From: Escherichia virus ECG4
Direction: 5' to 3' (one strand)
DNA length: 39,253 bases
Sequence record: MN218775.2
In this document: piece after piece, positions 5,555 through 35,785 of the stretch
Layout of the letters: each line of letters begins with the position of its first letter
Position numbering within the stretch: position 1 is the first letter of the stretch
Notes under the pieces: generated by a model
What the model was told of the DNA's origin: nothing
Database searches by the model: none
What the model saw: the letters and a program-made list of their open reading frames with translations, nothing else
Made by a program: the position numbers and the translations under genes

Positions 5555-5620
5555 CAGGAGAGAGTTCTGAAATTTGCACACAAGCATGCTGGAGTTAAGG
5601 GCGGGACTCAAATCGTGACC

Positions 5621-5782: not shown

Positions 5783-6023
5783 CAGACCTACAGTTACTGG
5801 CCTTGTGGCTGGGAGCACTCGCAGTATTCACTTTAATCCAAAGCAGAAGAGGTTAACCCATACGTTCAACCTTATACTGCAAGCCCGTATCGCAGATCTC
5901 GCAGCAACCATCGAGGGTCAGGACCAAAATCTTGAGCTGGCTAACCGGGAGCCCGCACGGCTAGGGGCCAAGATTTAGAAGGCTGAAGAGAAGCGTGAAG
6001 TCGAGCCGTTCGAGGTTAAGCGG

Positions 6024-6416
6024 ATGGTCGGCCTGAAGTTCAAGGCTCTGTTCAATAGCCTCTACCAGCCGACTGAGTTCAAGACCGGGCCTGGAGCATG
6101 CGGTAAGATTGTGACGCACTTCACCACGAGTCGAGACGAGCGGACCCTGACCATCCACCAGCACCACACGGATGGCTCTCAGAAGGACTACATGCTGAGA
6201 CTGAGCGACATCGACGGTCGCATCCAGTATGACTACGAGCAAGTTAAAGTCTATGGACAGGAGGCCGAACGTGAGCGAGCGATTCAGGCATTCACGCAGG
6301 TAAGACCGCGCATCATCTTACCCCTTTGCCTCCCATTGCCGTTAACCGTTAAAATTCCGTGTCGACGTACGTACGTACGTACGTACGTACGTACGTTGCA
6401 TGCATGCATGCACTAA
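6024..6416 (+). CDS. Hypothetical 130-aa ORF that runs into the tetranucleotide repeat tract
   Basis: ATG with GAGG 8 nt upstream. The last about 15 codons are translated from the (ACGT)n/(TGCA)n tract and the stop is the TAA of the downstream promoter, so the 3' end is not credible as native coding. Confidence 0.25.
   Translation: MVGLKFKALFNSLYQPTEFKTGPGACGKIVTHFTTSRDERTLTIHQHHTDGSQKDYMLRLSDIDGRIQYDYEQVKVYGQEAERERAIQAFTQVRPRIILPLCLPLPLTVKIPCRRTYVRTYVRTLHACMH
6357..6412. repeat. Perfect tetranucleotide tandem tract: SalI-like GTCGAC, then (ACGT)x8 (6365-6396), then (TGCA)x4 (6397-6412)
   Basis: Read directly from the sequence. Contains ATG in all three frames (6400, 6404, 6408) and three GCATGC sites; abuts the phi1.1-like promoter. 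Confidence 0.95.
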
Positions 6417-6434
6417 ACTATCACTATAGGATTA
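6412..6434 (+). promoter_or_regulatory. Phage RNAP promoter (phi1.1-like)
   Basis: TAAACTATCACTATAGGA at 6414-6431, +1 G at 6429. Confidence 0.75.
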
Positions 6435-6476
6435 GACTCAAGGTCATGACTCAAAGTCGTGGCCTTCATGATTAAC
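6433..6476 (+). promoter_or_regulatory. Conserved hairpin element TAGACTCAAGGTCAT ... GTGGCCTTCATGATTAAC (candidate RNase III site, R1.1-like)
   Basis: One of three near-identical elements (also 13237-13278 and 36245-36287); AAGGTC can pair with GGCCTT. Confidence 0.45.
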
Positions 6477-6514
6477 CTTTATTACTCATTTTCAATTATT
6501 GGAGCTTTACCCCT

Positions 6515-6968: not shown

Positions 6969-8017
6969 CAACTATCAAAACCAACCCGCATCGCGCTGTA
7001 GATTACTCTGAGTCAGGCGTTAAGAAAGCGCTTGAAGCTGCTGGGTCGCTGGAAGCCGAAGTGAAGTATGACGGTGTGCGGTTGAATATTCCGGTGACGT
7101 ATGAGGGTGAGACTTACTGGTTAAGCCGTGAGTCAAAAGCGCTTCCGGCCTTAGACTGTTTCAACAGTGGGTCAGGACATGCGTGCCGTGCGGCCGACTG
7201 GCGATGGTTCCTGAAGCAAGCAGGACATGAAGTCTTCGGTCTGATGATTGACGGAGAGGTGATGGTCAAGGGTGTAGACTTCAACACATCCTCAGGTCTT
7301 ATCCGCACCCTGTGGCTGACCCCAAGCAACTACAAGTGCACTGAAGGCTATCCAGGACGTAGCAACAAGGTCCCATTCCAGATAGCCCGGTTCCTACTCA
7401 AAGTGGTCGTCTACGGGGTCATCGACCTTAACATCATCAACGACCCGAAAGCCGAAGGTCCTATCCATAGCGTCACACGCCTGAAGGCCGAAGCTATCGT
7501 CCCTCTCCTCCAGAAATACTTCCCGGAAATAGACTGGGTTCTGTCTGAGTCATACATAGTGTTTGAACTTGAAGCGCTTACCTGCTTGTATGAGGAGAAG
7601 AGTTTAGAGGGCCATGAGGGTCTGGTGGTTAAAGACCCACTGGGACGCTGGAAGCGTGGCAAGAAGTCAGGTATGTTCAAGATGAAACCCGAAGAGGGCA
7701 TTGACGGTACGTTGTACGGCCTTATATGGGGAACAGAAGGTCTAGCCAACGAAGGTATGGTCATCGGCTTTGACGTTATGCTTGAGAACGGGATGGAAGT
7801 GGATCGGAAGCCTTCCACTCATGGTTCTGCTCCTCACTCAGGCCGCACGCATTTAAACTGGCGTAAGGGGTTATGCTCAAGCACTATTTATGGAAACCCG
7901 TTTGCGGGTAATCAGGTGGAAGTCCTCTTCATGGAGCGGTTCCCTGATGGCTCCCTTCGTCACCCCAGCTTCAAGTGCTGGCGTGGAACCGAAGACAACC
8001 CAACGGTGAAGTCATGA
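6950..8017 (+). CDS. ATP-dependent DNA ligase (T7 gene 1.3 homologue), 355 aa
   Basis: Adenylation motif KYDGVR (AEVKYDGVRLNI); length and position as for T7 ligase. Confidence 0.92.
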   Translation: MEYNTMTTIKTNPHRAVDYSESGVKKALEAAGSLEAEVKYDGVRLNIPVTYEGETYWLSRESKALPALDCFNSGSGHACRAADWRWFLKQAGHEVFGLMIDGEVMVKGVDFNTSSGLIRTLWLTPSNYKCTEGYPGRSNKVPFQIARFLLKVVVYGVIDLNIINDPKAEGPIHSVTRLKAEAIVPLLQKYFPEIDWVLSESYIVFELEALTCLYEEKSLEGHEGLVVKDPLGRWKRGKKSGMFKMKPEEGIDGTLYGLIWGTEGLANEGMVIGFDVMLENGMEVDRKPSTHGSAPHSGRTHLNWRKGLCSSTIYGNPFAGNQVEVLFMERFPDGSLRHPSFKCWRGTEDNPTVKS

Positions 8018-11034: not shown

Positions 11035-11247
11035 ATGATTAAACTTATCGAATTTCTCGGTCGTCTGGTGGTGCGTGGTTATCGTCGTGCTGCGGTTATG
11101 GAACGAAAGGTAGCAGAGAAGACTGCTGACGGTGCGGCTGATGCTGCTGCTCTGGCTGACAAGCTGACCATCGCGTCACTGGAAGCTGGCATGAAGGCAC
11201 GTCAGGCTGACACCAAAGCTGACCAGTTGTCTAAGTTCTTCAACTGA
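11035..11247 (+). CDS. Hypothetical protein, 70 aa (hydrophobic N-terminus, Ala/Lys-rich tail)
   Basis: ORF with AAGGAG RBS. Confidence 0.55.
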   Translation: MIKLIEFLGRLVVRGYRRAAVMERKVAEKTADGAADAAALADKLTIASLEAGMKARQADTKADQLSKFFN

Positions 11248-11253
11248 CTGAAG

Positions 11254-11326: not shown

Positions 11327-11344
11327 ATGGCTTTTTTTTTTTAA
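11327..11344 (+). other. Apparent authentic gene 4 start codon followed by an in-frame TAA inside a T11 homopolymer
   Basis: AAGGAG RBS, then ATG GCT TTT TTT TTT TAA. The codons after the stop translate to [28 protein letters not shown], matching the T7 gp4A zinc-binding N-terminus. Confidence 0.6.
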
Positions 11345-13298: not shown

Positions 13299-15470
13299 AT
13301 GTTTGACCTTAAGAGTATCTGGGGTTCTGACATAGAGACCAACGGTCTCCTTGATACAGTATCCCAGTTTCACTGTGGGGTCCTGATTAACGCCGAGTCG
13401 AATGAGACCCTTAAGTATGGGGTAGCTCCGATGGTCGGTATCGTCGGTGGCTTCAAAGAGTATGTACAGAAGGTGGAAGAGATTGCCGCATCACCTGATG
13501 GTATGCTGGTATTCCACAACGGTATCAACTATGACGTCCCGGCTATTGACAAGCTGAAGCGTCTGTACTTTGGGAAACGCTTTAACTTCCCGAAACACAA
13601 GATGATTGATACCTTGGTGCTGGGACGCTTGATGTATCCAAACATTAAGTTCTCAGACATGGGCGCAGTGAAAGCTGGTCGTCTGCCACCTAAGATGATG
13701 GGACGCCAGTCTCTTGAGGCTTGGGGCTATCGTCTCGGTGAGATGAAAGGTGAGTACAAACACGATTACGTTGCCAAGTGCAAGGCTGAAGGTATCGAAT
13801 ATAAGGCTGGGGACGAATGGTTGTTCCCATCTCAGGAGATGCTAGACTATAACGTTCAAGACGTTGTGGTCACACTGGCGTTGTTCAAGAAGTTCCTGAC
13901 TGACAAGTATTACTTCCAGTCTGAACAGTTCGCTTTCGACCAGATTTATGCGTTGCGTCTGGAACATGATGCTGCGTGGACCTGTGCGAAGATGGAACGT
14001 AACGGCTATCCGATGAACACCGAGATGGTCGAAGGCTTATATCGTGAACTCACCGTCAAACGTGCAGAGTTGTTGGACAAGCTGCGTTCGACTTTCGGTA
14101 GCTGGTATGCACCAAAGGGAGGCAAGGAGTTCTTCAAGCACCCACGGACAGGCAAGGACCTTCCGAAGTATCCGCGAGTCGTGTATCCTAAGGTCGGGTC
14201 AGTATTCAAGAAGCCGAAGAACAAAGCTCAACGATTAGGTCTGGAGCCTTGCGAGTTCGACTCACGAGACACGATGGAAGGAGCACCGTTCACACCTATC
14301 ACTTACGTTGAGTTTAATCCGGGAAGCGGAGACCACTTAGCGAAAGTCCTGATGGAGCGTGGCTGGGAGCCTGTGGACTTCACTGACACCGGGAAACCTG
14401 TAGTCGATGACGAGACGTTAGAACACGTTAAGTTACCAGACGAAGAGGCTCAGGCTTGCGTAGAGCTGGTCCGTGAGTATCTGGTAGTCCAGAAGCGCAT
14501 CGGTCAGGCTGCTGAAGGTAAGAACGCATGGTTGAAACTTGTAGGTCCAGACGGACGTATGCACGGTTCAATCAACCCATGCGGGGCAGTAACCGGACGT
14601 GCTACTCATAGTTCACCAAACATGGCTCAGGTCCCTGCTAACGGTGCTCCGTATGGTGAGATTTGCCGTGGTGCTTTCGGTGCAGCTTGGAACAAGACGG
14701 ATGGTAAGCCAGACCCTTGGATTCAAGTGGGCGTGGATGCCTCAGGTCTTGAGCTTCGTTGTCTGGGGAACCGAGCGGCCCCGTTTGATGGTGGAGCCTA
14801 TGCGAAGACTGTGGTAGAAGGGGACATCCACTGGGCCAACGCAGTAAACGCTGGGTTAGCACCTAACGTCCCACGCGATAAGTCGAACCACGACCATGAG
14901 GCTTTCCGTAACAACGCTAAGACGTTCATCTATGCGTTCCTGTATGGTGCAGGGGCCGCTAAGATTGGACTGATAGTCGGTGGCGGTAAGAAGGAAGGTT
15001 CAGCTCTCATGAAGAAATTCATTGAGGGTACACCAGCTATCAAGGATCTGCGAGAGGCTGTGAAGAATACGTTAATCTCAGACTCTAAGTGGGTGGATGG
15101 AGAGAACATCGTCAAGTGGAAACGCCGTTGGTTGCGTGGACTTGATGGTCGCCGTATCCACATCCGGTCGCCGCACTCAGCACTTAACGCCTTACTTCAG
15201 GGTGATGGTGCGGTGGTCTGTAAACACTGGCTTGGCGAGATGGAACCTAAGCTTTACGAGGCATTTTACCTGCATGGCTGGGATGGTGACTTTGCGTTTA
15301 TGGCTTTTGTCCATGATGAAGTTCAAGTTGCCGGCCGGACTATGGAAATAGCTGAGGACATCGTTAAGGTGGCGCAATCCACAATGCGAGAGGTTGGAGA
15401 GTTCTACAAGTTCAAGTGTGTACTTGACACCGAGGGAAAGATAGGATTTACGTGGCGGGAGTGTCACTAA
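13299..15470 (+). CDS. DNA polymerase (T7 gene 5 homologue), 723 aa
   Basis: Family A polymerase order: N-terminal 3'-5' exonuclease (SDIETNGLL), then palm/fingers; length close to T7 gp5. Confidence 0.95.
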   Translation: MFDLKSIWGSDIETNGLLDTVSQFHCGVLINAESNETLKYGVAPMVGIVGGFKEYVQKVEEIAASPDGMLVFHNGINYDVPAIDKLKRLYFGKRFNFPKHKMIDTLVLGRLMYPNIKFSDMGAVKAGRLPPKMMGRQSLEAWGYRLGEMKGEYKHDYVAKCKAEGIEYKAGDEWLFPSQEMLDYNVQDVVVTLALFKKFLTDKYYFQSEQFAFDQIYALRLEHDAAWTCAKMERNGYPMNTEMVEGLYRELTVKRAELLDKLRSTFGSWYAPKGGKEFFKHPRTGKDLPKYPRVVYPKVGSVFKKPKNKAQRLGLEPCEFDSRDTMEGAPFTPITYVEFNPGSGDHLAKVLMERGWEPVDFTDTGKPVVDDETLEHVKLPDEEAQACVELVREYLVVQKRIGQAAEGKNAWLKLVGPDGRMHGSINPCGAVTGRATHSSPNMAQVPANGAPYGEICRGAFGAAWNKTDGKPDPWIQVGVDASGLELRCLGNRAAPFDGGAYAKTVVEGDIHWANAVNAGLAPNVPRDKSNHDHEAFRNNAKTFIYAFLYGAGAAKIGLIVGGGKKEGSALMKKFIEGTPAIKDLREAVKNTLISDSKWVDGENIVKWKRRWLRGLDGRRIHIRSPHSALNALLQGDGAVVCKHWLGEMEPKLYEAFYLHGWDGDFAFMAFVHDEVQVAGRTMEIAEDIVKVAQSTMREVGEFYKFKCVLDTEGKIGFTWRECH

Positions 15471-33033: not shown

Positions 33034-35667
33034 ATGTCCACGATTACACAATTCCCTTCAGGAAACACTCGTTACAGGATTGAGTTCGACTACCTAGCCA
33101 GAACGTTTGTTGTTGTTACGCTGGTGAATAGCTCTAACCCTGCCCTGAACCGTGTACTGGAAGTTGGTCGAGATTACCGATTCCTTAATCCAACGATGAT
33201 TGAGATGTTGGTTGACCAATCAGGTTTCGACATCGTTCGTATTCACCGTCAGACTGGAACTGACTTAGTGGTAGACTTCAGGAATGGCTCAGTGTTGACA
33301 GCTAGTGACCTGACCAATGCAGAGCTTCAGGCTATCCATATTGCAGAAGAAGGTCGAGACCAAACTGTTGACTTAGCGAAGGAATATGCCGATGCTGCTG
33401 GTAACTCTGCTGGCAACGCTAAGGATAGCGAGGACGAAGCACGACGAATCGCTGAGAGTATCAAGGCATCTGGTCTTCTTGGCTATATTACCCGTCGCTC
33501 CTTCGAGAAAGGCTTCAACGTTACAATATGGAACGAGGTACTGCTATGGGAAGAGGATGGTGATTATTACCGATGGGATGGTGGACTGCCAAAAAACGTA
33601 CCTGTTGGTTCAACTCCTGAAACGTCTGGCGGCGTTGGTTTGGGTGCGTGGGTTAGTGTTGGTGATGCGTCATTGCGCGCCGATATTGCAAACCTTTACC
33701 AACCGGAACAAATTTATTCGGCACAAAAACGGGAAACACTGTCTACAGTCCTGAGCAGCCGTTGGGCTAATTCGGGAGCAGATAAAAAGAAATTCGTTTT
33801 GACCTGCCATTACTATTCCCAGATTACGATGCTATTCTGGCGGCACACCCTGACTGGACGTTTATTTATCCGGGGTCATTCTGTATCGGGGATGATGGCA
33901 AAATCTATATTACATATGGCCCAAGTAACAACGCAGCTACGGAACGTTTCGTTGTACTTTACTCAGGTGAAGGTGAATACTTACGTATCTCCAGACTATT
34001 ATTGGAGGCACCGGGGTAAATGGTTCTGCGGTATCCGAGGGATTATCGTAACCAATTACTATGGTTCACTTAAGTTATTCCTTGATCCTACGATGGTAAC
34101 TTACCTGAGTTTGATATCTCAGCAGTGCCCTACGGCACCACGATTAGCTATACAGCGTTACACCAAGTGGGTCTGGGCATTAACCGTCAACGTAATGTTA
34201 TTGCGTACTTCAACCCGCATTTGCATTAACTGGTTTCACGGAATTTTCTCCGTATCATGCTGGATACATCACGTCAACTACTACTCATTACGGGTCACTT
34301 CAAACTATGCGACAAGCAATCTGTTTAGCTCCCGGTGTTTTGATCATGGCATTTGGTGGTGTTTACATTACAGGAACAACTGTACAAGCGCCTACTATTT
34401 ATCAGGGTACAAGCATTTAGCACTGATGGGCACAAAATGGTACAGGCAGTACTACCCCTACTCATTTTATTACTGTTTTGATGCTACAGGGTTAATGACC
34501 TCTCGTATAGAGAATCAGGGTGTCTGCTATTCAAATGGTCAAGTATTTACTTTCTGGATTTATATCAATACAACTGCCTCAAATGCGTATACTATCGGTA
34601 TCCTGATTACTCAAGAATATTCGAACTCCCCGGATTTGATTTTTCTGGGGCGGTTACGGTATCCCCGGTTACGATACTGTTCGAATGGCTTCTGGGTTTA
34701 CCCTCGTATTCTCTTACAGATCTGGATGGAGTTGCCTACCCAATTGGGATACAGCTTCATATCAGCAACCTCAATAACCTCAGCTTCTATAGATCAGACT
34801 GGGCCACTACCCGTAAGACTCTGCGCGTTACTTATCACACTTCCGGTTATACCGTATTTACTGGGGCTATCGGTTTACAGACTTATCGCTTATCCCTCAA
34901 TAATACTGACTCTGGTGCATTATCCCAAGGTCGAATTGCAGCTAGGGCTTTCGGTAATAAAACTTTATCCGAATCAGAACAGATTCTTGTCCTCGATCAA
35001 CAAAGTTCCGCATCTGCACATTCTCTTATCTTACGTGGTGGATCGTCGGTATTTAAGAGTGCTACGTCTATTATATCTATACGCCATCGAATACTGCCAC
35101 CTACGGTTTCGGGCGACGGATTACTACCAAAACATACATCTCTACGTCCATACACAGATAACGCTTACAATTTACGCGGCCCAGCATTACGTGTGGCTCA
35201 AGTCTTCGCAGCGATTGGTACTATTAATACGTCCGACTCCCGTGAAAAACTTACCCGTTTCAAATCTCGGATCATATCCTTCATGCCTGGGCGACGTGCA
35301 GATAATCACGTACAAGTGGTTATCTTCTATTGCGGGTACAGGTGCAGATTCTGCTCGTTGGCATTTCGGGTATTTGCCCAGCAAGTTCGTGATGCCTTCG
35401 TATAGCATGGTTTCATGGTACTACCTTCGGTCTGCTTTGCTATGTCGAGTGGGAAGATCAGTATCAACCTCAGTTCGTTCATCAGGTTATCACTGTTATT
35501 ATTCATGGTGTAGATACCGAAGTTACCCGTCAAGTGGAAACCGGTATTACCATACTTACTACAGCTGCCGGTCATCGCTGGGGCATTCGTCCAGATCAGT
35601 GTTTCTGGTTGAGGCCGCTTATCAGCGACGTCGCTGCGACAGGATTGAAACACGACTGACTGACTGA
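33034..35667 (+). CDS. Tail fiber/tailspike ORF, 877 aa: T7 gp17-like N-terminal adaptor domain, then an anomalous central region
   Basis: N-terminal about 230 aa matches T7 gp17 ([36 protein letters not shown]). From about 33750 to 35600 the open frame encodes a Tyr/Cys/Trp/His-rich, Asp/Glu/Lys-poor sequence. The ORF ends in the three-frame stop TGACTGACTGA. Confidence 0.5.
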
Positions 35668-35690
35668 CGTACGTACGTACGTACGTACGT
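35654..35690. repeat. Perfect tetranucleotide tandem tract: (GACT)x3 then (ACGT)x6, with TGA in all three frames
   Basis: Read directly: GACTGACTGACTGACGTACGTACGTACGTACGTACGT; TGA at 35657, 35661, 35665. Confidence 0.95.
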
Positions 35691-35785
35691 GCTTGAAGGT
35701 TGTGGAGGTAGAGGCTAACTACACGCTGACCAACGTATGGTAACAGCTTTGGGTCACGGACGACCCGCTTTAAACTGGAGGTTTT

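Follow-up and report, generated by a model that had tools for sequence, protein, structure and literature searches.

A perfect tetranucleotide tract beside a phi1.1-type promoter in the Escherichia virus ECG4 record is probably filler in the deposited text

Results

The sequence record of Escherichia virus ECG4 (MN218775.2), the whole of which (39,253 nucleotides) formed the window analysed here, carries at 6357-6412 a tetranucleotide tract that is very probably scripted or typed filler, written at an assembly or editing join, having no biological function and residing in the text of the record rather than in the DNA of the phage. This reading follows from the restriction of the tract to three records, the triviality of its units (ACGT, TGCA and, in a companion tract, GACT), the overwriting of the natural motif GATAAA at the companion site and the text editing found around both tracts.

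Composition of the tract and the adjacent promoter

The tract in ECG4 runs from gtGTCGAC through (ACGT)8 and (TGCA)4 into CTAAACTATCACTATAGG. Analysis with TRF delimited two perfect arrays, neither of them assigned to a strand: (ACGT)8 at 6365-6396, a self-complementary array of 32 nt (period 4, 8.0 copies, 100% match), and (TGCA)4 at 6397-6412, which is ACGT spelled backwards (period 4, 4.0 copies, 100% match). A site scan located a SalI site (GTCGAC) at 6361-6366 and, within (TGCA)4, three overlapping SphI sites (GCATGC) starting at 6398, 6402 and 6406, together with ATG triplets at 6400, 6404 and 6408 that cover all three frames, on both strands. The first-pass annotation had described an (ACGT)8(TGCA)4 array with a SalI site, three SphI sites and ATG in every frame, and these elements are present as it described them. 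Palindromic six-base sites in the tract were SalI, SphI (three), BsiWI (seven), SnaBI (six) and NsiI (two).

The longest perfect period-4 run in the genome was 32 nt, compared to a maximum of 15 in 200 shuffles; when both tracts were removed, the longest such run elsewhere in ECG4 was 11 nt. The (ACGT)8 array folds as a perfect hairpin, and the hairpins of the tract were predicted at -22.2 kcal/mol (z = -4.7). The best matches of the tract in Rfam lay below the gathering threshold (23.5 vs 100 bits and 19.2 vs 70 bits), and the tract is a member of no known Rfam RNA family. The occurrence of ATG, or of TGA in the companion tract, in all frames was considered as a design feature and rejected, because any period-4 repeat that contains such a triplet places it in every frame; it is an arithmetic by-product of the period and no evidence of design.

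Immediately downstream lies a phage RNA-polymerase promoter at the phi1.1-type position (6412-6434, plus strand; ACTAAACTATCACTATAGGATTA), which is kept in relatives. The promoter consensus, (A/C)CTAAACTATCACTATAGG, occurs 11 times in ECG4 (0.27 copies expected by chance), and ACTAAACTATCACTATAGG, the consensus of the 11 copies from -17 to +2, is conserved in Peacock and ST1749, where it occupies the same position. In these two phages the promoter is identical from 6413 on, and the EcoDS1 and phiSG-JL2 records annotate a promoter beside gene 1.05. Judged by this conservation, the promoter at 6412 appears to be a genuine, natural member of the T7-group promoter set of the phage. The statement that the array ends where the promoter begins was borne out to the base, the last base of the array (A6412) being promoter position -17.

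A 93-nt block foreign to relatives

Comparison with Peacock showed that the two genomes are identical through 6319 and again from 6413, and that in Peacock the base corresponding to 6319 is joined directly to that corresponding to 6413. The foreign block is therefore the 93 nt at 6320-6412, which comprises 45 nt of orphan, non-repetitive sequence (6320-6364, plus strand; ACCCCTTTGCCTCCCATTGCCGTTAACCGTTAAAATTCCGTGTCG), missing from Peacock, followed by the 48 nt of arrays. The first-pass annotation had taken the 48-nt array as the unit; the array is real, but the unit foreign to relatives is larger. The block, including the copy number of the arrays, is identical base for base in ECG4 and in version 2 of the Escherichia virus LS3 and LS2 records.

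The block consists of exactly 31 codons and lies in frame in the gene 1.05 homologue (6024-6416, plus strand; deposited as WEU75002.1 and WGG26684.1), whose product is thereby extended from 99 to 130 aa, the stop still being a TAA inside the promoter region and the C-terminus in ECG4 being encoded by the arrays. The alignment with relatives indicates that this lengthening is artificial. The block also gives rise to a spurious ORF of 38 aa (6359-6475, plus strand) that uses a GTG start 6 nt upstream of the array and reads through both arrays and the promoter; it has been annotated in LS2 as protein LS2_11 (WFG77595.1).

Searches for a source of the block were negative. Alignments of the 45-mer to the phage itself and to two relatives, as forward, reverse complement, plain reverse and complement sequence, scored no better than shuffles. 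A 49-nt stretch containing the core of the 45-mer gave chance-level matches only in 72,556 plasmids and in E. coli genomes, and a plasmid, vector or E. coli origin of the block was rejected. Comparison of the block with adapters, the Samba flow order, the pUC multiple cloning site and common primers yielded nothing above shuffles.

Distribution of the block

Among 50,697 phage records, the 45-mer was found in LS2 and LS3 only. The gene 1.05 product has homologues in 93 phage records by tblastn, and the alignment extended past residue 93 in the two LS records only, leaving 91 other phages that bear the homologue without the block. Exact-match pattern scans were made in IMG/VR, GTDB genomes and JGI metagenomes. 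Neither a 33-38-nt core of the 45-mer nor the ACGT-to-TGCA junction pattern had an exact match in these three collections, and (ACGT)6 alone had none in the 2.9 million contigs of IMG/VR. A search of the INPHARED phage collection (August 2025) did not list ECG4 itself among its matches.

These results show that the block is restricted to three sister records, ECG4, LS3 and LS2. They agree with the earlier remark that such an array is unexpected in a lytic phage, in that this is not natural phage sequence and is confined to those records. Presence in independent related genomes, which would have rescued a natural origin, was looked for; only the three sister records turned up, and none of four large collections contained the sequence.

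The companion tract at 35654-35690

A second tract, (GACT)3.75(ACGT)6, occupies 35654-35690 on the plus strand, and each of its three frames contains a TGA. As had been proposed, this tract and the one at 6357 are alike in kind. In phages with the same tailspike type (ST1749, ZCEC02 and U8) the corresponding sequence reads CGACTG-GATAAA-CTTGAAGG, and the ORF extends about 11 codons further. ECG4 and LS3 have ACTGACTGACGTACGT...ACGTG written over this GATAAA, with the result that the tailspike stops early and about 11 C-terminal residues are lost. This comparison shows the overwriting of natural sequence at the companion site. Homology to Peacock restarts at 35691, the first base after the companion array. 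Both tracts therefore lie exactly at breaks in the similarity to relatives. The junction pattern of the companion tract had no exact match in IMG/VR.

A smaller feature was seen at 11242-11249, where ECG4 alone has an 8-nt insertion (AACTGACT) and LS3 has CTGACC. The insertion lies directly upstream of another phage promoter (11259) and introduces an early TGA where the small ORF upstream of it ends. It may be a miniature filler of the GACT type.

Signs of in-silico editing in the three records

ECG4 is a T7-like Kayfunavirus and is collinear with LS3 (MN518893.2), with 322 scattered differences. That it might simply be version 1 of LS3 was considered and rejected, since exact look-ups of its proteins (WEU75031.1 and WEU75002.1) led to ECG4 as a separate record. 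The records of LS3 and LS2 (MN518894.2) give sewage in India as the origin and share their source metadata. LS2 has most of the ECG4/LS3 backbone, the main difference being the tailspike module carried on a near-identical structural and late region. The three records presumably come from one submitter.

The tailspike ORF of ECG4 (33034-35667, plus strand; 877 aa) is repeatedly frameshifted relative to natural tailspikes, has no internal stop and encodes an implausible Tyr/Ser-rich sequence after about residue 215. In a tblastn search with the ST1749 tailspike protein, LS3 version 2 was matched in pieces that switch frame, and the identity with ECG4 was no more than about 43%. The frame in use contains 0 internal stops, compared to 32-45 in the other two frames. 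ST1749 has 44 stop triplets in that frame, and 40 of the 44 follow a fixed rule in ECG4 (TAA to TAT, TAG to TAC, TGA to TCA); at many of these former stops LS3 version 2 has AAA, AAG or AGA, or TTA, TTG or TGT. The rewriting of stops by rule is thus what keeps the frameshifted tailspike ORF open, and, because ECG4 and LS3 differ precisely at the rewritten stops, they cannot both be sequenced DNA. A 42-aa LS3 protein (UniProt A0A7D5KUP4) ends exactly at one rewritten-stop site and probably derives from an earlier version of the LS3 record. Beyond about residue 215, most of the deposited 877-aa tailspike (WEU75031.1; in LS3, WGG26706.1) is fictitious.

In LS2, positions 33579-35681 consist of 701 consecutive most-preferred E. 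coli codons, a run that passes through a stop codon. The run encodes residues 235-899 of the Peacock tailspike with 100% protein identity at about 75% DNA identity and, past the stop, continues into a 36-aa peptide resembling the C-terminus of the LS3-type tailspike. A further 74 top E. coli codons stand in a row at the 3' end of the ligase gene (LS2 7775-7996). Their codon usage indicates that these segments are back-translated and not sequenced. ECG4 itself contains no run of 12 or more top codons, which means that the arrays are not tied to back-translation editing in ECG4.

Alignment of the three records revealed 75 columns in which no two of them agree; T predominates there in ECG4, A in LS3 and G or C in LS2, a pattern that suggests ambiguous bases filled with a letter specific to each record. 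Taken together, the rewritten stops, back-translated segments and record-specific letters show that the ECG4, LS3 and LS2 records were edited in silico.

Several local irregularities were also recorded. Clusters of the three-way-different columns include ECG4 6480-6514, 11335-11342, 15254-15266 and 33997-34002, and the fill at 11335-11342 produces TTT TTT TTT TAA within the primase/helicase gene. Many of the differences between ECG4 and LS3 fall at edited stop or start codons; the codon at 5567, for example, is CTG in ECG4 and ATG in LS3, LS2, Peacock and ST1749. ECG4 1381-1416 is a perfect 18-nt tandem duplication (CTACAGGTCGTTAGACTG, two copies), shared with LS3 and present as a single copy in Peacock and LS2. 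In the 3' region of the ligase gene, ECG4 has a 12-nt insertion (7804-7815) and a diverged stretch relative to Peacock, ST1749 and LS2; the protein reads …MEVDRKPSTHGSAPHSGRTH… in ECG4 and …VVNACGLTEEQKDEFTASV… in relatives, and then rejoins them, so that this region is probably another frameshifted and repaired segment. LS2 5843-5887 is a second 45-nt copy, 100% identical to ECG4 5569-5613 (the beginning of the small gene that follows the RNA polymerase gene), and lies about 270 nt downstream of the original.

Comparison with known kinds of sequence

The tract resembles a polylinker in being a dense cluster of palindromic six-base sites, but a few enzymes recur there in overlapping sites, with no ordered unique set and no vector flank. 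The first-pass annotation had likened the tract to a polylinker or marker, a likeness that would imply physically engineered DNA and that did not hold up when the sites were tested for uniqueness: SalI cuts at two other places (641 and 20301), as does SphI (5584 and 6096), and similarity to vectors or adapters was lacking. BsiWI was the only enzyme confined to the arrays, where it occurs 12 times. With synthetic watermarks and barcodes the tracts share a non-natural composition, a position at gene edges and at a promoter and, in the companion, an all-frame stop motif; unlike these, the tract is essentially without information content, belongs to no published construct and is surrounded by text-edited record. 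Its perfect period of 4 and its overlap with a reading frame recall phase-variable simple sequence repeats. Unlike such repeats, the tract shows no copy-number polymorphism, is not found in relatives but in three sister records only, and occupies the 3' end of its ORF, so that expression would not be switched by a change of length.

Runs of N mark assembly gaps, and linkers with stops in six frames serve to concatenate contigs into pseudomolecules. The tract shares with such placeholders and linkers its artificial nature, its location at homology breaks and its stop (or start) triplets in every frame. It differs from them in being undeclared, in consisting of ordinary A, C, G and T that pass validators, and in being annotated as protein-coding. 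By analogy, the tract would behave like an undeclared gap linker. As would be expected of filler, it is missing from independent related genomes, and other computational edits were found in the same and sister records.

Discussion

The sequence of events that would best account for these findings starts from error-prone assemblies of ECG4, LS3 and LS2. These would later have been repaired by computer, stops being overwritten, ambiguous positions being filled with arbitrary letters and protein back-translations being inserted. Two joins would have received a placeholder composed of simple rearrangements of the four letters: just upstream of the phi1.1-type promoter, ACGT forwards eight times and then backwards four times; where the tailspike module ends on its 3' side, GACT and then ACGT. 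Gene callers would then have read through the filler, adding 31 codons to gene 1.05 and creating the spurious 38-aa ORF. In this scheme the arrays probably mark contig or edit joins and presumably arose by the same kind of editing as the rest of the records, and the tract itself is likely to be physically absent from the phage. If the filler exists only in the text, the second site in the phage DNA would read ...CGACTGGATAAACTTGAAGG....

Some features sit less easily with filler. The 45-nt non-repetitive half of the block does not obviously look like something typed, and the 31-codon length together with the consensus A left at -17 could fit a deliberate physical design. The arrays are also the same in ECG4, LS3 and LS2, in contrast to the small arbitrary fills, and ECG4 itself contains no back-translated segment.

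These features bear on the alternative that the tract is a physical insert, a barcode, marker or landing pad with SalI, SphI and BsiWI sites that was placed in the laboratory at a module boundary and matched by an all-frame stop cassette after the tailspike. Both tracts indeed lie at functional boundaries (the end of gene 1.05 at promoter position -17, and the 3' end of the tailspike), the 93-nt block keeps the frame and leaves the promoter consensus intact, BsiWI sites are confined to the arrays, and the relation of LS3 and ECG4 to LS2, which differs mainly by the tailspike module, resembles a tailspike swap. However, the LS3 and LS2 records state sewage isolates, SalI and SphI also cut elsewhere in the genome, and no vector or adapter similarity was detected. 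A swapped-in tailspike would moreover be, as written, a frameshifted and stop-edited ORF instead of a working gene, and two versions of one sequence that differ exactly at edited stops are possible only in silico. A literature search on LS2, LS3, ECG4 and their accessions found no describing paper, one unrelated paper citing LS2 as a comparator only; that no paper describes such a construct also speaks against an insert, which we regard as very unlikely. A broader version, in which the arrays are physically present and ECG4, LS3 and LS2 are, or descend from, engineered T7-like phages with synthetic junction cassettes that were deposited as sewage isolates, is more improbable still. Its cassettes would be an all-frame ATG/SphI pad upstream of the promoter and an all-frame stop pad after the swapped tailspike and, if it were true, an undocumented engineered lineage would be present in public databases or in the environment.

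An origin in the instrument or the assembler, as untrimmed flow-order noise or a scaffolder spacer at contig ends without deliberate editing, is unlikely, and it is likewise non-biological, differing from filler in the deposited text only in who or what wrote the tract. It is favoured by the many indel-type frameshifts of the underlying assembly, which are typical of flow-based or nanopore data, and by the location of both tracts where homology to relatives breaks. A flow-based sequencer that cycles through TACG and uses TCAG as its key would give, on reverse complementation, ...ACGT...GACT. The companion tract, when reverse-complemented, is (TACG)n followed by (TCAG)3, which we take to resemble a flow order plus a library key. 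Against such an origin, (TGCA)4 is the plain reversal of ACGT, which no sequencing chemistry is known to make; three records, each deposited separately, share the same arrays without a single impurity; a key appears once in each read and not three times; and comparison with adapters of the Ion and 454 platforms and with the Samba flow order gave no similarity. A natural feature, namely a tetranucleotide microsatellite or palindromic hairpin acting as a phase-variable tract, a terminator-like element or a recombination hotspot, is barely credible. The perfect hairpins (-22.2 kcal/mol, z = -4.7) would suit it, and (AGTC)n, the complement of (GACT)n, forms known phase-variation tracts in some bacteria. 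But the sequence occurs in no independent relative and in no collection scanned, its length does not vary among ECG4, LS3 and LS2, it lacks the T-run of a terminator, its Rfam matches are far below threshold, and at the companion site conserved coding sequence was overwritten. The distribution effectively refutes a natural feature.

Filler in the deposited text thus stands as the preferred reading, and the tract is almost certainly a problem of database quality and not biology or a real feature of the phage. If it is filler, its only effects are on annotation, namely the lengthened gene 1.05 product and the spurious 38-aa ORF. On this account no fewer than three phage records deposited publicly as 'complete genome' (ECG4, LS3 and LS2) hold invented sequence in the form of filler arrays, rewritten stops and a back-translated tailspike, and proteins derived from invented sequence (WEU75002.1, WGG26684.1, WFG77595.1, WEU75031.1 and WGG26706.1) are now in NCBI and UniRef. 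Such records can mislead studies of taxonomy, host range and receptor-binding proteins as well as models that learn from phage genomes. Screening for the stop-triplet rule and for runs of top codons is cheap and could flag records edited in a similar way elsewhere.
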